Notes under the pieces: generated by a model
What the model was told of the DNA's origin: nothing
The model's database searches: none
What the model saw: the letters and a program-made list of their open reading frames with translations, nothing else
Source of the DNA: Candidatus Saccharimonadota bacterium
Lineage (GTDB): Bacteria > Patescibacteriota > Saccharimonadia > Saccharimonadales > Saccharimonadaceae
Assembly: GCA_017404935.1 (NCBI GenBank)
Contig: JAFRBI010000006.1
Span: 32,379 to 96,378, forward strand
Direction of reading: 5' to 3'
DNA length: 64,000 bases
Program-made: the position numbers and the translations under genes
Shown here: positions 10,079 through 56,896 of the stretch, in pieces
How the letters are laid out: the number at the start of each line of letters is the position of its first letter
Numbering within the stretch: the first letter of the stretch is position 1

Positions 10079-11412
10079 ACCTCAAGAAAACAACGGATAA
10101 CTGTCCCCTTTGAACGATACAAATAATTTGAAAAATTCGTAAAATTAATTCCTCTGGTATCCAGTATTGTTACTTCCTGCTGAGCATGAGAAGAGCGAGT
10201 GGAAGAAAATATATATGCGCCAGTCCCAGTTGGGCTATCGGCATAGGCATAGTTTCCAAGGGATAATTTTTGCTGAAAAGTAGGACCGCTATTGCTATAC
10301 GAGGCGTATAAATGATAATATTCTGTACTAGCATTATTTGCTAGAGTCGGTATTCTCCATCCAATTGGGCAAATATCATATGGCGAATCTAGATATGTGT
10401 CTGGGGTATCAACAGCGGCACCAGAAGGATAACAATATGAGCCCGCGGAGGCCGCGCAATAATTATAGAAAACCCCAATCAACCCACTGCCGGCACCGTA
10501 ATTGGCGCTACTTAGAACATTCTTATAACCCGTCCTGATTCTGGGTTCAGTATATTGCTCCGACCAAGTATTATTGACGGCAGAAGTAGCGTATGGACTC
10601 GAACACCCACCATTAATCAAGCATTCCAGTGCTTCGGCGGTAGAATTAGTGTTTGACGGAGAAAGGCTAGCCTGGACATCTGAATCCGTTAAATCCAATC
10701 TCATGTTGTCTAGCATCCAGCAATTTCCATCAGCCAATCTAGCAACCTTATAGACTTCATCATCCCGTATATCTGGCAACTCTACTATATCCTCTATATT
10801 CATAGCAGAGCAGTCGGAGGCAGTAAAAGTTTGCATGTATTTTATCAGTGGGTTAGCCGTAGTAGTAAACACCAGCGTAGTCTTATAAGTTCCAGAAGCT
10901 TGTAGATAGTCTATTTTGGAGGCAAAGGATAGTGTAGTAGTATCATCATTGGCATAGGTATCACTTTCTAGAATGGTAGTATTAGTAGCAAATGGTATAT
11001 AGCTTCCTGAATCCTTCTTGTAACCCCAATGGTTAGCTGGGAAGTCTGATGGTGAAGAATAGCTTCCAGAAGCTAGGGTTGGAATAGTTAGAGTATTGTC
11101 TGTAGTTTCTACTAAGTCTGTATCTCCACTCTGACTAGTTATAATAGTTTTATAGCCAGTAGCGTTATTAGTTCCTACTGTAATAGTAAGGTTATTACTT
11201 CCAGAGTCAGTGGATGATGGATCTAGATTAAGTACTAATGGAGTTGATGGGATAGTGACAGTAAGGCTTGGTTCTATACTGACGTCTGTGGTGATATTCT
11301 CAGATGCGGTTGCGGAATTACTAAAAAACATTAGAAAAATACCTAAAATTGCTACTATATATAATATATAGTGCGATTTTGTTCGGTTTTTTATGGCTTG
11401 TATGACGTTCAT
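10075..11412 (-). CDS. secreted/surface protein with one FISUMP (Fib_succ_major)-like domain
   Basis: N-terminal hydrophobic signal; D.RD..Y.V.RLADGNCWMLDN, YNYCAASAG, ICPIGWRIPT, C-terminal IRC; GAGGT RBS before ATG 11412. Confidence 0.75.
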   Translation of the reverse strand: MNVIQAIKNRTKSHYILYIVAILGIFLMFFSNSATASENITTDVSIEPSLTVTIPSTPLVLNLDPSSTDSGSNNLTITVGTNNATGYKTIITSQSGDTDLVETTDNTLTIPTLASGSYSSPSDFPANHWGYKKDSGSYIPFATNTTILESDTYANDDTTTLSFASKIDYLQASGTYKTTLVFTTTANPLIKYMQTFTASDCSAMNIEDIVELPDIRDDEVYKVARLADGNCWMLDNMRLDLTDSDVQASLSPSNTNSTAEALECLINGGCSSPYATSAVNNTWSEQYTEPRIRTGYKNVLSSANYGAGSGLIGVFYNYCAASAGSYCYPSGAAVDTPDTYLDSPYDICPIGWRIPTLANNASTEYYHLYASYSNSGPTFQQKLSLGNYAYADSPTGTGAYIFSSTRSSHAQQEVTILDTRGINFTNFSNYLYRSKGTVIRCFLEV

Positions 11413-28734: not shown

Positions 28735-29590
28735 CACTCACTGCCACTTACACGATAGAGAATTCTTCTCGGAAGAACAAGCTGAAGAAATGCTAAAACG
28801 CGCCCGTAAAAAGGGTATAGAAAAAATAATTTGTATCGGGACATCACCAGAAGATTCAGTTGCTGCCCGTGATTTTGCCAACAAACACGACAATGTTTAT
28901 TGGACCTATGGCATCCACCCCGAAGGAGCAACAGAAGGGATTGAATCGGTTCTTTCTTCAGCTGGACTTGAATTTTTAAGCACGTCATACACTGGGACGC
29001 CGAGAGAACCGTCTCCTAAAGGAGACGAACCTCTCGGGTCCGGCAGGAATATACGTGTTAAAAATTCAAATCAGACTTTTATGCTTCAGAAAGAACCCAT
29101 TCGATCCCCCATTGCCATTGGTGAAGTAGGGCTGGATTATCATTATGATGGTTATGATCGCGAGGCGCAGATTAAACTATTCGAAGAAATGTTGCAGCTA
29201 GCCAAGGATAATAACCTTCCAGTGTCTTTCCATGTGCGTGAAGCGTTTGATGATTTCTTTGCAGTGATTGCAAATTTCCCAGAAATTAGGGGCGTTGTCC
29301 ATTCTTTTTCGGACAACAAAAAGAACTTGAAGCGCATACTTGACAAAACTGATTTTTATGTTGGTGTAAACGGTATGGCAACTTATTCCACTTTGCCAAC
29401 TCCGCCGCTTGAGAGAATTTTGTTAGAGACAGATGCGCCATTTTTGACACCGGTGCCATTTCGTGGTAAAATAAATGAATCTGGCTATATTTATGAGATC
29501 GCCGAGTGGCTATCAAATAAATTAGCTATAGATTTCGACAGGGTGGAGAGAGAGACAACTAAAAATGCAAGAGAATTATTCAAATTTTGA
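28724..29590 (+). CDS. tatD: TatD-family deoxyribonuclease with ~35-40 aa palindromic insertion
   Basis: DTHCH, GIHP, IGEVGLDY, VHSF, LLETDAPF. Confidence 0.93.
   Translation: MLIDTHCHLHDREFFSEEQAEEMLKRARKKGIEKIICIGTSPEDSVAARDFANKHDNVYWTYGIHPEGATEGIESVLSSAGLEFLSTSYTGTPREPSPKGDEPLGSGRNIRVKNSNQTFMLQKEPIRSPIAIGEVGLDYHYDGYDREAQIKLFEEMLQLAKDNNLPVSFHVREAFDDFFAVIANFPEIRGVVHSFSDNKKNLKRILDKTDFYVGVNGMATYSTLPTPPLERILLETDAPFLTPVPFRGKINESGYIYEIAEWLSNKLAIDFDRVERETTKNARELFKF
28937..29108. repeat. nested inverted repeat (~170 bp) inside tatD
   Basis: gggattgaatcggttctttct/agaaagaacccattcgatccc; ttgaatttttaagcacgt/acgtgttaaaaattcaa; ccgagag/ctctcgg; cgtctcc/ggagacg. Confidence 0.85.
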
Positions 29591-31686: not shown

Positions 31687-32806
31687 GACTGTCTTCGTTG
31701 GGATGTCTGGTGGGGTAGATTCTAGTGTTTCGGCGCTTTTATTGAAGCAGCAAGGCTATAAGGTGGTGGGAGTTTATATGAAGAACTGGTCCAAAGACCT
31801 CCCAGGAATGAAATGCCCTTGGGCAGAAGATCTAGCCGATGCTAAGCGTGTGGCCGTAAAGCTCGGCATTGATTTTGAGGTTTGGGATTTTGAAAAAGAG
31901 TATTTTGAGCGCGTGGTAGAGTATATGCTTTCTGAATTTAAGGCTGGCAATACCCCAAATCCAGATATTATGTGTAACCAAGAAATCAAATTTAAGTTGT
32001 TTTACGAAAAAGCGATGGAATGTGGCGCAGATTTTATCGCTACGGGACATTATGCCAGAATTATTGATGGTAAATTAGCTAGAGCGGTAGATGAGAAAAA
32101 GGACCAAACGTATTTTTTGTATCGCGTCTCTGAAGAGGCTTTGAAACATACGATTTTCCCGATTGGCGGGATGCTTAAAAAAGATGTTAAAAAATTGGCC
32201 GAAGAAAATGGACTTCATAACGCCTATAAAAAAGAATCGATGGGGGTATGTTTTGTGGGTGAAGTAGGGATGAAGGACTTTTTGAAAGAATATATCGATA
32301 TTAAACCTGGCGAGATTCGCGAAGTAGAAACCGAAAAAGTGGTGGGGCATCACGAAGGTGCGGTGTTTTATACGATTGGGCAACGGCATGGGCTGTATAT
32401 TTCGGGGAATGTGGGCGAGGTGAATACTGGCCTTCCGTATTATGTCGTTGAAAAAGATCTCAAAAAGAACATTGTATATGTATCTAGGAATATTAATAGT
32501 GATTTGGTTTGGACCGATAAGCTCGAGCTTAAAGATGTTTTAGTGCGAACCAAACAATTCATTTCTCGGGCCGCGTCCGGCCGGCCCGTCGCCACGGGCG
32601 GCCGGCGCTCGTCCTCGCGCTGCCGCGCTCCGGATCCCCTCGAAACGAACTGTTTGGTTCGCCTACGGCATCTTGGTGAGCTAATTCCGGCCAAGTTAGA
32701 AAACAATGTGTTGGTTTTTGAAAACAAAATTAAAAGACCGGCTGCTGGACAATCTGCAGTCTTTTACGACGGTGAAATTTGCCTTGGTGGCGGAATTATT
32801 ATATAA
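31679..32806 (+). CDS. mnmA: tRNA 2-thiouridylase with internal hairpin-element insertion
   Basis: GMSGGVDS, TPNPDIMCN, ATGHYA, KDQTYFL, ESMGVCF, YTIGQR, GQSAVFY. Confidence 0.97.
   Translation: MDKTVFVGMSGGVDSSVSALLLKQQGYKVVGVYMKNWSKDLPGMKCPWAEDLADAKRVAVKLGIDFEVWDFEKEYFERVVEYMLSEFKAGNTPNPDIMCNQEIKFKLFYEKAMECGADFIATGHYARIIDGKLARAVDEKKDQTYFLYRVSEEALKHTIFPIGGMLKKDVKKLAEENGLHNAYKKESMGVCFVGEVGMKDFLKEYIDIKPGEIREVETEKVVGHHEGAVFYTIGQRHGLYISGNVGEVNTGLPYYVVEKDLKKNIVYVSRNINSDLVWTDKLELKDVLVRTKQFISRAASGRPVATGGRRSSSRCRAPDPLETNCLVRLRHLGELIPAKLENNVLVFENKIKRPAAGQSAVFYDGEICLGGGIII
32545..32662 (+). repeat. GC-rich hairpin element (core 32566-32641) with 21-bp inverted arms, in frame in mnmA
   Basis: Arms gcgaaccaaacaattcatttc / gaaacgaactgtttggttcgc (19/21). 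Confidence 0.92.
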
Positions 32807-42148: not shown

Positions 42149-42273
42149 TTATAACACAAGAAATACCCTTCCGAGGACATTTCGGAGCGCGGCAGCGCGA
42201 GAATTAGTGCCGGCCGCCCGTGGCGACGGGCCGGCCGGACACGTGTCCGAGGATGGGTATTTTTGTGTTATAA
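42149..42273 (-). repeat. GC-rich hairpin element in reverse orientation (core 42173-42250) with inverted arms, intergenic after rplL
   Basis: Reverse complement contains cccgtcgccacggg; arms ttataacacaagaaatacccttcc / ggatgggtatttttgtgttataa. Confidence 0.9.
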
Positions 42274-49322: not shown

Positions 49323-49928
49323 ATGCTTCCAAAGGCACTTTCTGACGCGATTGAGGCTTTAGGTATGCTTCCTGGTGTTGGCCCAAAAACGGCTGAACGC
49401 TACGCATACTATCTTTTTAAATCTAGCGATAAAGTGTCTTCTGCTATTTCGGAAGCTCTTTCTAATTTACACAAGGGCGTAAAATCTTGCCCGGTGACTT
49501 TTGCTTTGATTGATGCTAATGACAAAGTTTCGCCACTTTACAGCGACCCTACGCGTGATAAAACTACTGTAATGGTGGTAGAAGAACCGTTGGATATCTT
49601 TGCGATTGAGCAAACCAAGTCTTATAAAGGCACTTATCATGTGCTAGGTGGGGCGATTTCGCCGATTGATGGTATTACGCCAGAACAACTACATATTGGC
49701 GAGCTAATCAAACGTGTAAATGACGACAATGTAAAAGAGGTAATTATCGCCACCAACCCTTCGGTAGAGGGCGAATCTACAGCGCTTCTGCTGGAAAAAA
49801 TGCTGCACGAACAAAATCCAAACCTCAAGTTGACTCGCCTTGCGCGCGGGTTGCCACTAGGTGTAGATTTGTCTTATGCGGACCAAATTACACTTAGCGC
49901 AGCATTAGAGAACCGACAGGCACTCTGA
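49323..49928 (+). CDS. recR: recombination mediator RecR
   Basis: LPGVGPKTAER, VVEEP, YHVLGG, ATNPSVEGE, LARGLPLG. Confidence 0.96.
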   Translation: MLPKALSDAIEALGMLPGVGPKTAERYAYYLFKSSDKVSSAISEALSNLHKGVKSCPVTFALIDANDKVSPLYSDPTRDKTTVMVVEEPLDIFAIEQTKSYKGTYHVLGGAISPIDGITPEQLHIGELIKRVNDDNVKEVIIATNPSVEGESTALLLEKMLHEQNPNLKLTRLARGLPLGVDLSYADQITLSAALENRQAL

Positions 49929-50023
49929 GGGGCCGCGTCCGGCCGGCCCGTCGCCACGGGCGGCCGGCGCTTCGCCTCGCGCTGCCGCGCTCCGGAATCC
50001 CCTCAGAGCGCCTGTCGGTTCTC
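49908..50023 (+). repeat. GC-rich hairpin element between convergent recR and ligase; arms are the last 21 nt of both genes
   Basis: gagaaccgacaggcactctga / tcagagcgcctgtcggttctc (20/21). Confidence 0.93.
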
Positions 50024-51745
50024 TTTTAACGCCATAAAGTCTACTTTGCCAAGTTTGGTTTTTGGAAGCTCTTTTACGAATTCTAGTTCGCGTGGCATCT
50101 CGTATTTGGCGAGATATTTTTTATAAAGTTTATTTAGATCTTTTTTAGCGGCGTGGGCGCTTTCTTCTGGTTTTAAGACAATAAATACTTTGACAATTTC
50201 GCCACGAAGTTTGTCTGGAATGCCTACACAAATACAGGTATCAACATACTTAGATTTTAATGTAGCTTCTTCTACGTTTGAAGGGTAAATATTATAACCA
50301 TTTGAAATAATCATTCTTTTTAGTCTAGCCTTAAAGTAAACTACGCCGTTTTCATCTACATAGCCAATATCGCCGGTTCTTAGATATTTTTTGCCGCCAA
50401 CTTTAACAAAAGTTTTTTCGGTTTCTTTAGGGTTGTTTAAGTATTCTTTCATAATGGTGAGGCCACGCACTAAGATTTCACCACTTTCACCGGTTTTTAC
50501 AGGCTTTTTGGTTTTTGGGTCTACAATTAAAGCTTCGCTGTCTGGAAGAGGGAAGCCAATCGCGTTATCTAGGCCCGCTACTTTTTTGGCCGAGAAAATC
50601 ATACCACCAGCAGCTTCGGTGAGGCCGTAGCCGTTTTGAATGACTGCCTTTGAGCCGTGATCTTTCAAGAATTTATTAATATCGTCTTTTAGGGACTGGC
50701 TGACAATATCGCCACCTGATACTACACCTTTAATGCGTCTGAGCTCTCTCGGGCCAAACTTAACTTTCATCATATATTCAAATACTGTAGGCACCCCCAC
50801 AAGTACGTTGATACGATAATTCTTAATATATTTTTTGAGTTTTTTGGCGTTGAACTGTGGAATTAGGACCATACGCATGCCGCAGTAAAGTGGAATATGC
50901 ATACAAACCCCCATACCAAAAGCGTGGAAATTTGGGAGAAAACAAAGCATAGAATAACGAGGCTTCAAAAGCTCAGAAACTAGATACTTAGCACCGAGAG
51001 CCTGGGCGTTAAAATTCATACTAGTCAATACTACGCCTTTTGGTTTGCCGGTAGTACCACCAGAATAGAGAATGATGGCTGGATCATCTGGTTTCATATG
51101 AACGTGCGGATCTTCGGTGTATTTGAGAGATTTTAGCATAAATCTATCCCAAGTCATCACGTTTTGAGAACGTTTAATGTGATTTTTTCTGCCTTTGGTA
51201 AGTTTAAATAAAAGCCTTACCAAAAAGTCCATCGAACGAGTAGGGGAGACTACAATTAAGTGCTCTACATCGGTATTTTTGATGATGTTTTCTACTCTAG
51301 GATAGGTAACATCAATACAAAGCATCATTTTGGACTTTGACTGAATTAAATAATCTTCGATTTCTTTTTCGGAAGAAAGTGGGTGCACCATATTAGCCAC
51401 GGCACCAATCTCGTTTACGGCATAAAACATATAAACTGCTTCTGGGGTGTTTGGCATACAGATGGTAACGAAATCACCCTTTTTAATACCGAGAGCCTTC
51501 ATCGCGGCGGCAGCCTTATTAATCTTTTTGATCATTTCTTTGTAGGAAATTTCCATTTTGAAGTATTCAAGAGCAGTGCGATTTGGATAACGCTCAGCAG
51601 AGCGTAAAATTGCCTCGTACATACTGCCTTCAAAATATTTTAATTCTTTAGGGAGTTTTTCAATATAACCATATTTGTTGCGTTCGATATAAACGTCTAG
51701 CTTACGCATGCCGCTTCGGACTTTGTTGTACAGGAATTCTAACAT
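50003..51745 (-). CDS. AMP-forming acyl-CoA ligase (FadD-like)
   Basis: YSGGTTGKPKG, NGYGLTEA, RTGDIG, GYNIYP, KLGKVD. Confidence 0.9.
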   Translation of the reverse strand: MLEFLYNKVRSGMRKLDVYIERNKYGYIEKLPKELKYFEGSMYEAILRSAERYPNRTALEYFKMEISYKEMIKKINKAAAAMKALGIKKGDFVTICMPNTPEAVYMFYAVNEIGAVANMVHPLSSEKEIEDYLIQSKSKMMLCIDVTYPRVENIIKNTDVEHLIVVSPTRSMDFLVRLLFKLTKGRKNHIKRSQNVMTWDRFMLKSLKYTEDPHVHMKPDDPAIILYSGGTTGKPKGVVLTSMNFNAQALGAKYLVSELLKPRYSMLCFLPNFHAFGMGVCMHIPLYCGMRMVLIPQFNAKKLKKYIKNYRINVLVGVPTVFEYMMKVKFGPRELRRIKGVVSGGDIVSQSLKDDINKFLKDHGSKAVIQNGYGLTEAAGGMIFSAKKVAGLDNAIGFPLPDSEALIVDPKTKKPVKTGESGEILVRGLTIMKEYLNNPKETEKTFVKVGGKKYLRTGDIGYVDENGVVYFKARLKRMIISNGYNIYPSNVEEATLKSKYVDTCICVGIPDKLRGEIVKVFIVLKPEESAHAAKKDLNKLYKKYLAKYEMPRELEFVKELPKTKLGKVDFMALKENRQAL

Positions 51746-51771: not shown

Positions 51772-52596
51772 TTATTCAGGTAGGGCCAACTGTATTTTTG
51801 AGAGTGCCGAAAGTTGCTTACTCACCATTTCACGAAGTAATAATAAACGTTCGGGCTGAGATTTATTCTGACTAATTAAAATTGCGTTGTAGCTTTCTAG
51901 ATTTGCCAAAACCAATAATTGATCTATGGTAGCTTCGTCACGGATATTACCTTTTTTCCTTTTATTTTCGGTGCGCCACTCGCTAGCAGTTTTGCCAAAT
52001 AGAGCTACATTTAGTAAATCTGCTTCTTCTGCATATGTAAAATGAATTTGTCTTGGGGTTAGCTCTGGTGGAATTAAATTATTTTTAATCGCATCGGTAT
52101 GAATTCTATAATTGATTTTGCTAAGTTCGCGATTAAGGTTCCAGTTTAGAGATAATTTTGAGTTTTCGTCTGATTTGATACGTTGGTAGTCTTTTATGAT
52201 ATATAATTTAAACTCTGCCGAAATCCAAGATGCAAATTCAAAGGCGATATCGGAATGGGCGTAGGTGCCACCATAGCGACCAGATTTGGCTACAATACCA
52301 ACAGCATTAACCGTATTTATCCATTTTTGCGGAGACATCGAAAATGCATTGTATCCAGCTTCATTTCTAAACCCTTCAAATTCGACGGGTTTAAAATTTG
52401 GGTTATGCAATTCTTCCCATAAGCCAAGAAAAGTGATGGTTTCTTTTGACTTCATCCAAGTGCGAATAGCGTCATTCGGGTCGTCGCTTTTATATTTCGC
52501 AATATCCGTGAGCGAAATAAATTCGTTCTCAAAATCGTTGGTATAGATGCCAATTTTTAGTCCTTTGGCGTGAATAGTTTCTTGAACCTTTATCAT
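51772..52596 (-). CDS. KilA-N domain DNA-binding protein
   Basis: ISLTDIAK, GRYGGTYAHSDIAFEFASWIS. Confidence 0.88.
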   Translation of the reverse strand: MIKVQETIHAKGLKIGIYTNDFENEFISLTDIAKYKSDDPNDAIRTWMKSKETITFLGLWEELHNPNFKPVEFEGFRNEAGYNAFSMSPQKWINTVNAVGIVAKSGRYGGTYAHSDIAFEFASWISAEFKLYIIKDYQRIKSDENSKLSLNWNLNRELSKINYRIHTDAIKNNLIPPELTPRQIHFTYAEEADLLNVALFGKTASEWRTENKRKKGNIRDEATIDQLLVLANLESYNAILISQNKSQPERLLLLREMVSKQLSALSKIQLALPE

Positions 52597-54680: not shown

Positions 54681-54717
54681 TTTTACCTCGCTTCTATTAA
54701 CCCTATGGGGCTGAAAT

Positions 54718-54878
54718 AAAAATCAGCACCGTAGGCTGCTACCGTCCTATCTGAACGCACTCCAGAGAGTTTAAACGCCAAATCAGACTACCTGCGGTGC
54801 TGATTTTTACGTTCAAACTCAATTGGTTTATTTAAGGCACAATATGTTTTTTGACATATTACAAATAGAACGGTAGCA
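54718..54878 (-). promoter_or_regulatory. structured 5' leader, copy 2 (stem AAAAATCAGCACCG/CGGTGCTGATTTTT plus upstream antisense box)
   Basis: Same architecture as 11448-11583. Confidence 0.7.
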
Positions 54879-56150: not shown

Positions 56151-56896
56151 GGTTCTAGTATAACATATTTACCGGGTTTTAGTCCAGAAAGTTGATAGAT
56201 ACCAAAATTAGTCCGGTGCAACTTTTTTACTTTGTAGCCAAGCGCAGCAAAAGTCCTTCTGATTTGGCGATTTCTGCCTTCGGAAAGTTTAACTATATAT
56301 ACATTATTGTCATGAATAACAGTAAATTTGGATGGGCCATCGTCTAGCATCACGCCGTAGTCGGAAATCATTTGCTGATGCAGTGGCTCCAGTGGTTTAT
56401 CTAATTCTACTTCGTAGATTTTTTCTTTTTTGAATTTTGGGTGAGTGTGCTGAAAGGCAAAATCGCCGTCGTTAGTTAAGAGAATTAATCCGGAACTATC
56501 TTTGTCGAGCCGGCCGACGGTTTTTAATTTTTGATATTCTTTGGGCAAAAGTTCATAAATAGTAGGGGCGTCACCTTGGGCGCGGCGCGAACAAACGTAG
56601 CCCACCGGCTTGTTCATCGCAATATACAAGTAGTCCGTTTCAAACGGAACTATATTTCCATTATACCATACTTTGTCTGATTTGTCAAGTCTAGCGCCGA
56701 GCTCGGCTGGTTTATCATTGATTTTAACTTTACCAGCCTTGATTAAATCGTCGGCTTCGCGACGGGAAACGCCAATGCGCTCGGCAAGAAACTTGTTCAA
56801 GCGTAAGCATGCCTTCGGACACGCGTCGGCTCGGCCCGTCGTCACGGGCGAGCCGCGCTCTTCCTCGGTCGTGACCTCCGGACGGTCCTCAGGCAT
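56147..56896 (-). CDS. RsuA/RluB-family pseudouridine synthase with element-derived N-terminal extension
   Basis: RLNKFLA S4 start, NKPVG, VGRLDKDSSGL.LLTNDG, EGRNRQIRR. Confidence 0.93.
   Translation of the reverse strand: MPEDRPEVTTEEERGSPVTTGRADACPKACLRLNKFLAERIGVSRREADDLIKAGKVKINDKPAELGARLDKSDKVWYNGNIVPFETDYLYIAMNKPVGYVCSRRAQGDAPTIYELLPKEYQKLKTVGRLDKDSSGLILLTNDGDFAFQHTHPKFKKEKIYEVELDKPLEPLHQQMISDYGVMLDDGPSKFTVIHDNNVYIVKLSEGRNRQIRRTFAALGYKVKKLHRTNFGIYQLSGLKPGKYVILEP

Follow-up and report, generated by a model that had tools for sequence, protein, structure and literature searches.

The stretch of DNA analysed here, referred to as the window, comprises 64,000 nt of a Candidatus Saccharimonadota genome (contig JAFRBI010000006.1 of assembly GCA_017404935.1, positions 32,379 to 96,378). 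Within it, two convergent genes, recR and a gene for an AMP-binding acyl-CoA ligase, meet at a long hairpin that contributes to the end of both. This junction is one copy of a family of non-coding, GC-rich hairpin elements specific to Ca. Nanosyncoccus (Saccharibacteria), and comparison of orthologs and alleles supports the view that the ligase tail, after the residues ALK, is a derived, inverted copy of the recR tail. The features of the junction, in window coordinates, are as follows.

49323 to 49928, plus strand: recR, 201 aa (Pfam RecR_HhH, Toprim_4 and RecR_C); the last seven codons and the stop are the 5' arm
49907 to 49932, plus strand: 5' arm of the outer stem P1, AGAGAACCGACAGGCACTCTGAGGGG, found by inverted-repeat search; native-type recR tail and the first G's of the element foot
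49933 to 49998, plus strand: conserved GC-rich core of 66 nt, made up of the P2 hairpin, a linker and the P3 hairpin (fold z = -9.6)
49935 to 49970, plus strand: P2, a GC-rich hairpin, imperfect and with one G bulged out; the family motif CCCRTCGYYAYGGG consists of its 5-bp top (CCCGT/ACGGG) and its CGCC tetraloop
49979 to 49990, plus strand: P3, a short hairpin in the predicted fold, GCGC-TGCC-GCGC
49999 to 50024, plus strand: 3' arm of P1, CCCCTCAGAGCGCCTGTCGGTTCTCT, the inverted copy of the recR tail; its minus strand encodes ligase (K)ENRQAL and TGA
50003 to 51745, minus strand: AMP-binding acyl-CoA ligase, 580 aa (Pfam AMP-binding and AMP-binding_C); native up to ...VDFMALK, with the last six codons and the stop in the 3' arm

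On the plus strand recR ends in GCA TTA GAG AAC CGA CAG GCA CTC TGA at 49928, and the protein in ...SAALENRQAL*. On the minus strand the ligase gene ends in GCG TTA AAA GAG AAC CGA CAG GCG CTC TGA, with the stop at 50005-50003, and its product in ...FMALKENRQAL*. The first-pass annotation, made from the sequence alone, had pointed out that both proteins terminate in ENRQAL followed by TGA and that their 21-nt tails are the arms of an inverted repeat; the sequence itself, the translations of the open reading frames (ORFs) and the repeat search all confirmed this. The repeat consists of 26-nt arms, complementary at 25/26 positions (96%) and 66 nt apart, and is the longest among inverted repeats with a spacing of up to 300 nt in the window. 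Since the two stop codons occupy equal positions in the two arms, the identical hexapeptide is automatic. The coding 21-mer has two matches in the window, one per strand and with a single synonymous difference (GCA/GCG), and none was expected from 100 shuffles, which rules out a chance origin of the shared tail. Between the arms the DNA is approximately 75% G+C, as compared with approximately 41% genome-wide. The junction was recovered base for base, including the mismatch in the arms, from four further independent public assemblies (L242-L245, with one core substitution in L242), and is therefore not an assembly artefact.

In order to establish which of the two tails is derived, orthologs of both genes were compared; in what follows G000 is the genome under study, 740 kb in size, other G-labels are genomes of relatives and L-labels are fetched loci. 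Thirty RecR orthologs were fetched, and as L013 was masked by N this left 29 complete proteins of 199-203 aa. RecR of the same genus ends in ...AALENRT[KNQSD]L* or, in some cases, ENRQTF*, and in other families it ends in ...ALEGRQTL*. In the closest species, G103 (GAAAACAGGCAGGCGCTTTAA) and L160 (GAGAACCGGCAGGCGCTCTAA), RecR ends in AALENRQAL* in the absence of any element, and the recR arm is therefore of the native type. The ligase tails were taken from about 30 element-free orthologs convergent to recR. They end in ALKNR* (L159/G103, L160 and L181), ALKNREN*, ALKNRE*, ALKNQK*, ALKTKN*, ALENL*, ALEQL*, ALENY*, ALENK*, ALEKL* and similar sequences, and not one of them ends in ENRQAL. This is the comparison of C-termini that the first-pass annotation had suggested for its proposal that the ligase acquired both its C-terminus and its stop codon from an inverted copy of recR. 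Since the RecR tail is kept without the element and the ENRQAL ligase tail is unique to element-bearing alleles, the ligase tail is the derived one, and the part of the proposal that concerns the C-terminus stands.

The empty junction of G103 reads ...GGCAGGCGCTTTAA CGATTT and then TTCAAGGCC (longer stretch, TTCAAGGCCATAAAGTC), and that of G000 reads ...GGCACTCTGA, a 74-nt core (GGGG-core-CCCC), TCAGAGCGCCTGTCGGTTCTC and then TTTTAACGCC (longer stretch, TTTTAACGCCATAAAGTC). The native proteins already shared a short inverted microhomology, E-N-R in recR against K-N-R in the ligase (AACCG/CGGTT), and this appears to be the point where the copy rejoins the ligase gene. Two other routes to the shared ending were considered and rejected. 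Copying of the RecR tail from the ligase was ruled out by the conservation of RecR length and tail without the element. Plain loss of the ligase stop followed by read-through into antisense recR does occur, in L162 (CAZFVK010000023.1), where, in the absence of an element, the ligase frame has lost its stop and runs on along the opposite strand of the recR tail so that the genes overlap by 24 nt, but this yields ALKSLSVL* and not ENRQAL.

Within the 90% cluster of the ligase three C-termini were found: ALKENRQAL (n=4), ALKNKSKD (n=8) and ALKNRQTL (n=1). The NKSKD alleles L238, L240 and L241 have no element, and in these recR (...ALENRTNL*, stop TAG) overlaps the ligase gene by 11 nt. The NRQTL allele, L239, carries a core of another subfamily at the same spot; its distal arm reads TCAGAGTGTCTGCCGGTT / TTTCAAGGCC, and its ligase ends in ALKNRQTL*. 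The copy in L239 ends exactly at CGGTT, which represents the native N-R codons of the ligase and is the inverted match to AACCG in recR. A junction of the form ALK-NRQAL had been predicted from the L160-type native sequence before the L239 allele was examined. The junction is a natural experiment with alleles on both sides, in which a hairpin appears to have made part of a protein, together with its stop, by copying a neighbouring gene backwards.

The origin of the stop codons themselves may be different. Element-free recR tails at the junction (G103, L160 and L238) stop with TAA or TAG, and a TGA stop was seen in two distant relatives, L011 and L021, while recR ends in CTC TGA in both element-bearing alleles. 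The 3' foot of the element reads TCA in 9/23 copies and TCG in 10/23. Because a TCA foot is typical of the element and the element-free recR stops are TAA or TAG, both TGA stops may derive from the element foot instead of recR, in which case the earlier proposal would not hold for the stop codon.

The element was recognized as a family from its core. An exact 38-mer, the first 38 nt of the junction core, recurs at 32571-32608, inside a sister copy in mnmA, and another copy lies downstream of rplL:

32545 to 32662, plus strand: mnmA sister copy, with a near-identical core, wholly different arms (GCGAACCAAACAATTCATTTCTCGGG / CCCTCGAAACGAACTGTTTGGTTCGC) and in-frame read-through
42149 to 42273, minus strand: rplL copy, downstream of rplL, with arms (AAAAATACCC / GGGTATTT) homologous to the plain terminator stem of relatives

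Across the 740-kb genome, a 29-mer searched with up to 5 mismatches gave 7 copies, and the loop motif CCCRTCGYYAYGGG gave 23. All copies have a common fold, consisting of the long outer stem P1, an imperfect P2 with a 5-bp top, tetraloop and bulge, a linker and a short P3. The core measures 64-66 nt in most copies (59-70 nt across the copies called) and the P1 stem 24-35 bp. Copies share only the core and a foot of about 9 nt, for example TTTC-TC-GGG ... CCC-TC-GAAA; outside the foot the arm sequence (15-25 nt) is peculiar to each site, although the two arms of any one copy are complementary over it, and mean arm complementarity is approximately 91-95% over 42 copies. P2 shows covariation in 39 copies from 4 genomes, with 9-17 double substitutions and no more than 2 broken pairs at 5/9 of its pairs, and subfamily-specific variants of P3 retain the hairpin. 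Many copies have an unpaired TC on either side of the core; in the junction copy TGA/TCA is paired, and empty sites are without a clear TC duplication. The motif is present in 23/24 genomes of the genus Ca. Nanosyncoccus, a group recorded from ruminant-gut metagenomes, and in 0/16 genomes that represent other families of the same order; the reversed pattern, used as a control, gave almost no matches. A search of Rfam 15 gave no match for the element, the window having only tRNA and the L10 leader above the gathering score.

Many copies are read through in frame, in tgt, queA, mnmA, tyrS, gyrA, valS or a related synthetase gene, leuS, gatA, gatB, der and lepA, and orthologs are shorter by approximately 27-40 aa at the genic insertion points. 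Insertion sites were compared with the whole genomes of relatives G006, G011 and G004 and with targeted regions of the closer G103, G141, G067 and G158. At most clean empty sites the interval that replaces arm, core and arm is about as long as one arm:

queA: interval in relatives 24-30 nt, arm 26 nt
trm-like gene (C10:19733): interval in relatives 37 nt, arm 35 nt
recR/ligase: interval in relatives 24-35 nt, arm 28 nt
gatB: interval in relatives 35 nt, arm 27 nt

The arms are of host origin. In the clear cases it is the 5' arm that is native, as in recR, at the RluB N-terminus (RLNKFLA, 56782-56820), at G011_C6:15083 and at G006_C2:38490; the queA insertion in G067 likewise has a native 5' arm, TCTAATGATAATCTTGCCA against TTTAGTAATTATAATATTGCCA in G103. 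Since most inserts lie in variable loops, the native-arm test, carried out at both the DNA and the protein level, was decisive at a handful of sites. In many cases the other arm is also native at its outer end, which coincides with a native inverted microhomology (CGAAC/GTTCG in mnmA, GCAAC/GTTGC in tyrS, GTTCTA in gatB and ACTCT in der). In der 39 nt of native sequence were replaced by the insertion, and in gatB about 14 nt.

The same sites are reused by different core subfamilies, and the core can be flipped between the same arms, as in G006 versus G067 at the C10:19733 site and in G000 versus G006 at queA. Deletion remnants in relatives keep one arm and 8-15 nt of the core. At the mnmA site G103 has an orthologous copy with different, self-complementary inner arms, and G141 has a remnant. 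At the der site of G103 (L234; G103:C64, approximately 10446-10617) a second small GC-rich module, TTGCCTTCGGCAATTCGCGTCCCAAGGGGCGAGCG, sits in the P2 tip, so that the element there is nested or composite. The recR/ligase junction is a hotspot for several element families, and different hairpin elements occupy it in at least six other species. The junction hairpins in L004/L168, L174, L176, L184, L193 and L166 are unrelated to the element described here, some being AT-rich with arms of approximately 25 nt and others GC-rich with different cores; in L174 the recR-side arm holds the last codons of recR (AGA TTG TAA), and the inverted copy follows the ligase's own stop.

The orientation of the element is linked to replication. 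It follows local GC skew in 47/54 copies (32/32 '+' copies in positive skew and 15/22 '-' copies in negative skew; Fisher p = 2e-8), or in 21/25 when scored by contig (p = 0.0009), and it has no link to coding-strand bias (p = 0.28). Orientation that is tied to GC skew and not to the coding strand points to a replication-coupled process. Transition mismatches in P1 are strand-symmetric, with wobble pairs on the element strand in 37 cases versus 38 on the opposite strand, and 32 in gene sense versus 29 in antisense, and this symmetry argues against selection on the transcript.

It is probable, in our view, that the arms arise at the DNA level by a replication-coupled snap-back template switch, which copies one flank and rejoins at an inverted microhomology. 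A nascent strand would copy one flank normally and then acquire the core, after which the 3' foot would pair back on the complementary 5' foot and the strand would copy its own upstream flank as the second arm. Return to the original template would take place at a pre-existing inverted microhomology, here AACCG/CGGTT in the N-R codons, with deletion of the sequence between, and later hairpin-templated conversion would keep the arms complementary. At the junction, relatives have the two genes abutting or overlapping, and there the core would have inserted immediately behind the stop codon of recR. Some 18-21 nt from the end of recR would have been copied in inverted form on the other side of the core, at the cost of about 5 nt of native sequence that included the NR-stop of the ligase. 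Such a template switch would explain the one-arm interval, the distal microhomology, the deletions, the preference for quasi-palindromes and terminator loops, the strand bias and the two recR/ligase alleles.

Another possibility, which we consider unlikely, is that the core inserts only into the loops of pre-existing hairpins or quasi-palindromes, such as the terminators of convergent genes, and that intrastrand conversion then perfects and lengthens the arms, the ligase tail having been converted stepwise. The rplL arms are homologous to a simple terminator stem in G067 (AAAAATCACCC-CGCA-GGGTGATTTT) and to another simple hairpin in G103, and short native inverted repeats lie at the outer arm ends in mnmA, tyrS and recR/ligase. 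Orthologous copies keep their arms approximately 91-95% complementary despite 20-30% genome divergence, and the unrelated hairpins found at the recR/ligase junction in the other species would also fit insertion of this kind. However, the junction copy is young, sharing 38 nt of identical core with its sister, and already has a 26-nt stem paired at 25/26 positions. The ligase gained four codons relative to ALKNR*, which is what an inserted copy would give and base-by-base correction would not, and most of the empty sites in coding sequence have an interval of one arm and not two.

Several features recall a classical non-autonomous transposon, either a miniature inverted-repeat transposable element (MITE), a palindrome-associated transposable element (PATE) of the IS200/IS605 type or a REPIN (a hairpin formed by paired repetitive extragenic palindromic, or REP, sequences). 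In that case an enzyme acting in trans would recognize P2/P3, and the arms would be a by-product of target choice or gap repair. The imperfect P2 hairpin, with its conserved bulge and loop, is like the hairpins bound by HUH/Y1 transposases; the orientation is tied to the replication strand, as in transposons that move as single-stranded DNA (ssDNA); there are hotspots among the targets, and core length varies little (64-66 nt); and the 2-nt TC/TC bubble flanking many cores can be read as a target duplication. This origin is nevertheless improbable. The Y1 transposase (Y1_Tnp, PF01797) is absent from G000 and from 23/24 genus genomes that carry the element, in a search that detected its positive controls. 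The arms vary from site to site, which leaves the family without conserved terminal inverted repeats, and the core matches in the genome include no longer, coding parent, all of them being in short elements.

A selected RNA structure, whether a bidirectional terminator, a 3'-end stabiliser or an RNase III-type processing site with P1 kept by selection on the transcript, is a good deal less credible again. In its favour, both strands are predicted to fold with very high stability (z about -9), P1 stems shorter than 22 bp are rare, and the intergenic copies occupy gene ends (after rplA, after rplL and at the recR/ligase junction) at which terminator hairpins are found in relatives. Most copies, however, lie in ORFs that are read through in frame, where termination or cleavage would destroy essential mRNAs, and P1 has no asymmetry of G-U versus A-C pairs with respect to either the element strand or the gene strand. 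The orientation follows replication and not transcription, copies decay by deletion in relatives, and there is neither a match in Rfam nor a call at the junction by a terminator consensus scan; CTCTTTT follows the stem on the plus strand, and the minus strand is without a T run.

G000 encodes four reverse transcriptases (RTs), all of them outside the window (C3:51587-52294, C9:41773-42474, C8:23619-24164 and C7:14348-14986). Three are of the diversity-generating retroelement (DGR) type, with a length of approximately 390 aa and the motif IGNLTSQ, and each lies beside an inverted pair of 215-244 nt resembling template and variable repeats (TR/VR), with 87-91% identity; the fourth is DRT2-like (PADLOC Drt2, E = 6e-82). 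RTs occur in 19/24 genus genomes versus 3/16 outside the genus, and snap-back priming of the second strand is a known property of these enzymes, but the idea that an RT drives the spread and makes the second arm by hairpin-primed (snap-back) cDNA synthesis is the least credible of all, as G010, G011 and G012 hold 11-15 copies and no RT, the cores share no sequence similarity with the RT loci, the three DGR-type RTs have ordinary DGR TR/VR pairs, and the arms show no A-to-N mutagenesis pattern.

A number of observations weigh against snap-back copying, or against its being the whole explanation. We infer the copying itself, the source of the core and the part played by any enzyme from the end products; no intermediate or donor was observed, and the enzyme search covered two classes only, Y1 transposases and RTs. 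Both tails differ between element-bearing and element-free alleles of the same species: the flanks of G000 and L238 are 3.5% divergent, but 49893-49922 has 9 mismatches and 5 gaps, and 50013-50042 has 7 mismatches. The exact pre-insertion allele is therefore outside the sample. The direct precursor may be an allele other than the empty one sampled, or the element may have moved between strains, already armed, as a recombination cassette; the data do not distinguish such a transfer from de novo insertion. Protein alignment gave an ambiguous assignment of the native arm, or favoured the 3' arm, at several sites (TyrS, GatB and ValS). In tgt, neither arm is like the native SKQYNI segment, and no near-isogenic element-free tgt allele was found, the tgt cluster having a single member. 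At the rplL site both arms look pre-existing, so that insertion into an existing hairpin loop accounts for some copies without any copying. Snap-back copying does not explain the near-constant minimum stem of approximately 24 nt, nor the tgt site. Sites are reused, and very few copies have arms shorter than 24 nt; neither is predicted by plain replication error, and both hint at a targeting or measuring factor.

It is possible, although we propose it tentatively and with some doubt, that the family is a mobile element with DNA structure as its only machinery, a two-hairpin core that spreads at replication forks by template switching. If so, the stem would be programmed from adjacent host sequence, and the element would home to quasi-palindromes through microhomology between foot and arm. 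Gene ends would be rewritten in passing, with new C-termini, stops and starts. The smallest bacterial genomes would then harbour a DNA parasite that clamps itself and needs no transposase.

Elements of this kind appear to break short-read assemblies, and they also shift the annotation of gene ends. Contigs L239 and L243 end inside elements, and the recR/ligase junction of G141 contains a 100-N gap. Runs of exactly 100 N are found in L161 (G141:C18) and L196 (G141:C5), and one of 76 N in L013, at places where relatives have hairpin elements. The neighbourhood of the ligase gene also varies by strain. Just upstream of it the element-free strains have an ORF of 127 aa with a CdiA_C domain (L238, 377-760), and G000-type strains have a KilA-N protein in that place (window 51772-52596; L244). 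Two further inverted repeats were noted in the window. At 28937-29108, in a tatD-like ORF, there is a nested palindrome with another core, which is made up of inner arms and of 26-nt outer arms that are 85% complementary, and which lacks CCCRTCGYYAYGGG. At 54717-54809, upstream of a large ORF resembling a surface protein, lies an inverted repeat, unrelated to the GC-rich family, whose 19-nt arms are 95% complementary and separated by 55 nt.

No description of such a family for Saccharibacteria was found in the literature searched. The junction anchors a model of palindromic repeats that invade essential genes in the ultra-small genomes of the candidate phyla radiation (CPR) without a transposase, in which spread is linked to replication, quasi-palindromes are the targets and the stems are host-derived. 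It bears both on the spread through genes of selfish DNA like the Rickettsia palindromic elements and on the origin of coding palindromes.

The Rickettsia palindromic elements (RPE; Ogata et al. 2000, as cited in PMC10969869 and PMC6649704) are small palindromic repeats dispersed in a reduced genome. As they are outlined in those two papers, they resemble the present family in lying in frame in essential housekeeping genes, apparently being translated as extra loops, having no associated transposase and decaying over time. In-frame insertion without gene disruption was found here in tgt, mnmA, tyrS, gyrA and others. RPE copies, again as summarised there, share their whole sequence including the palindromic ends, whereas here only the core of about 65 nt is common, the 24-35-nt stem is local host sequence, and the arms are unrelated among the 23 copies. 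By the same outline, the present family differs from RPE in being GC-rich in an AT-rich genome, in its orientation with the replication strand, in its reuse of sites and in its capacity to create gene termini and stops.

For the coding palindromes of nematomorph mitochondria, Mikhailov et al. 2019 (PMC6649704) raised template switching and repeat conversion as possible mechanisms, and suggested that the repeats may behave like parasitic elements. In both systems the two arms are coding host sequence and are kept near-perfect (25/26 at the junction). The nematomorph palindromes, however, are up to 284 bp long, mitochondrial and without a conserved mobile core, and both of their arms encode conserved regions of proteins; here one arm is a surplus copy, and a conserved core is present at every tip.

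MITEs, REPINs and the PATEs derived from IS200/IS605 are likewise short, non-coding hairpin repeats, often located at gene ends, and a replication-strand bias is known for families transposed as ssDNA. Unlike these, the present family has no conserved terminal repeats and no gene for a REP-associated tyrosine transposase (RAYT) or TnpA (Y1), and its arms are site-specific. The GC clusters and double-hairpin elements of fungal mitochondria are GC-rich hairpin modules that have spread in AT-rich, compact genomes and enter coding regions. Their two-hairpin architecture is similar to that of the core, but they build no long outer stem from host flanks. Palindromic inserts in Magnusiomyces are bypassed in translation (mentioned in PMC6649704), whereas the reading frames here are continuous. 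We place the family among the selfish palindromic repeats, as a variant of them, and regard the recR/ligase junction as an unusually clean case of arm copying and gene-end remodelling.

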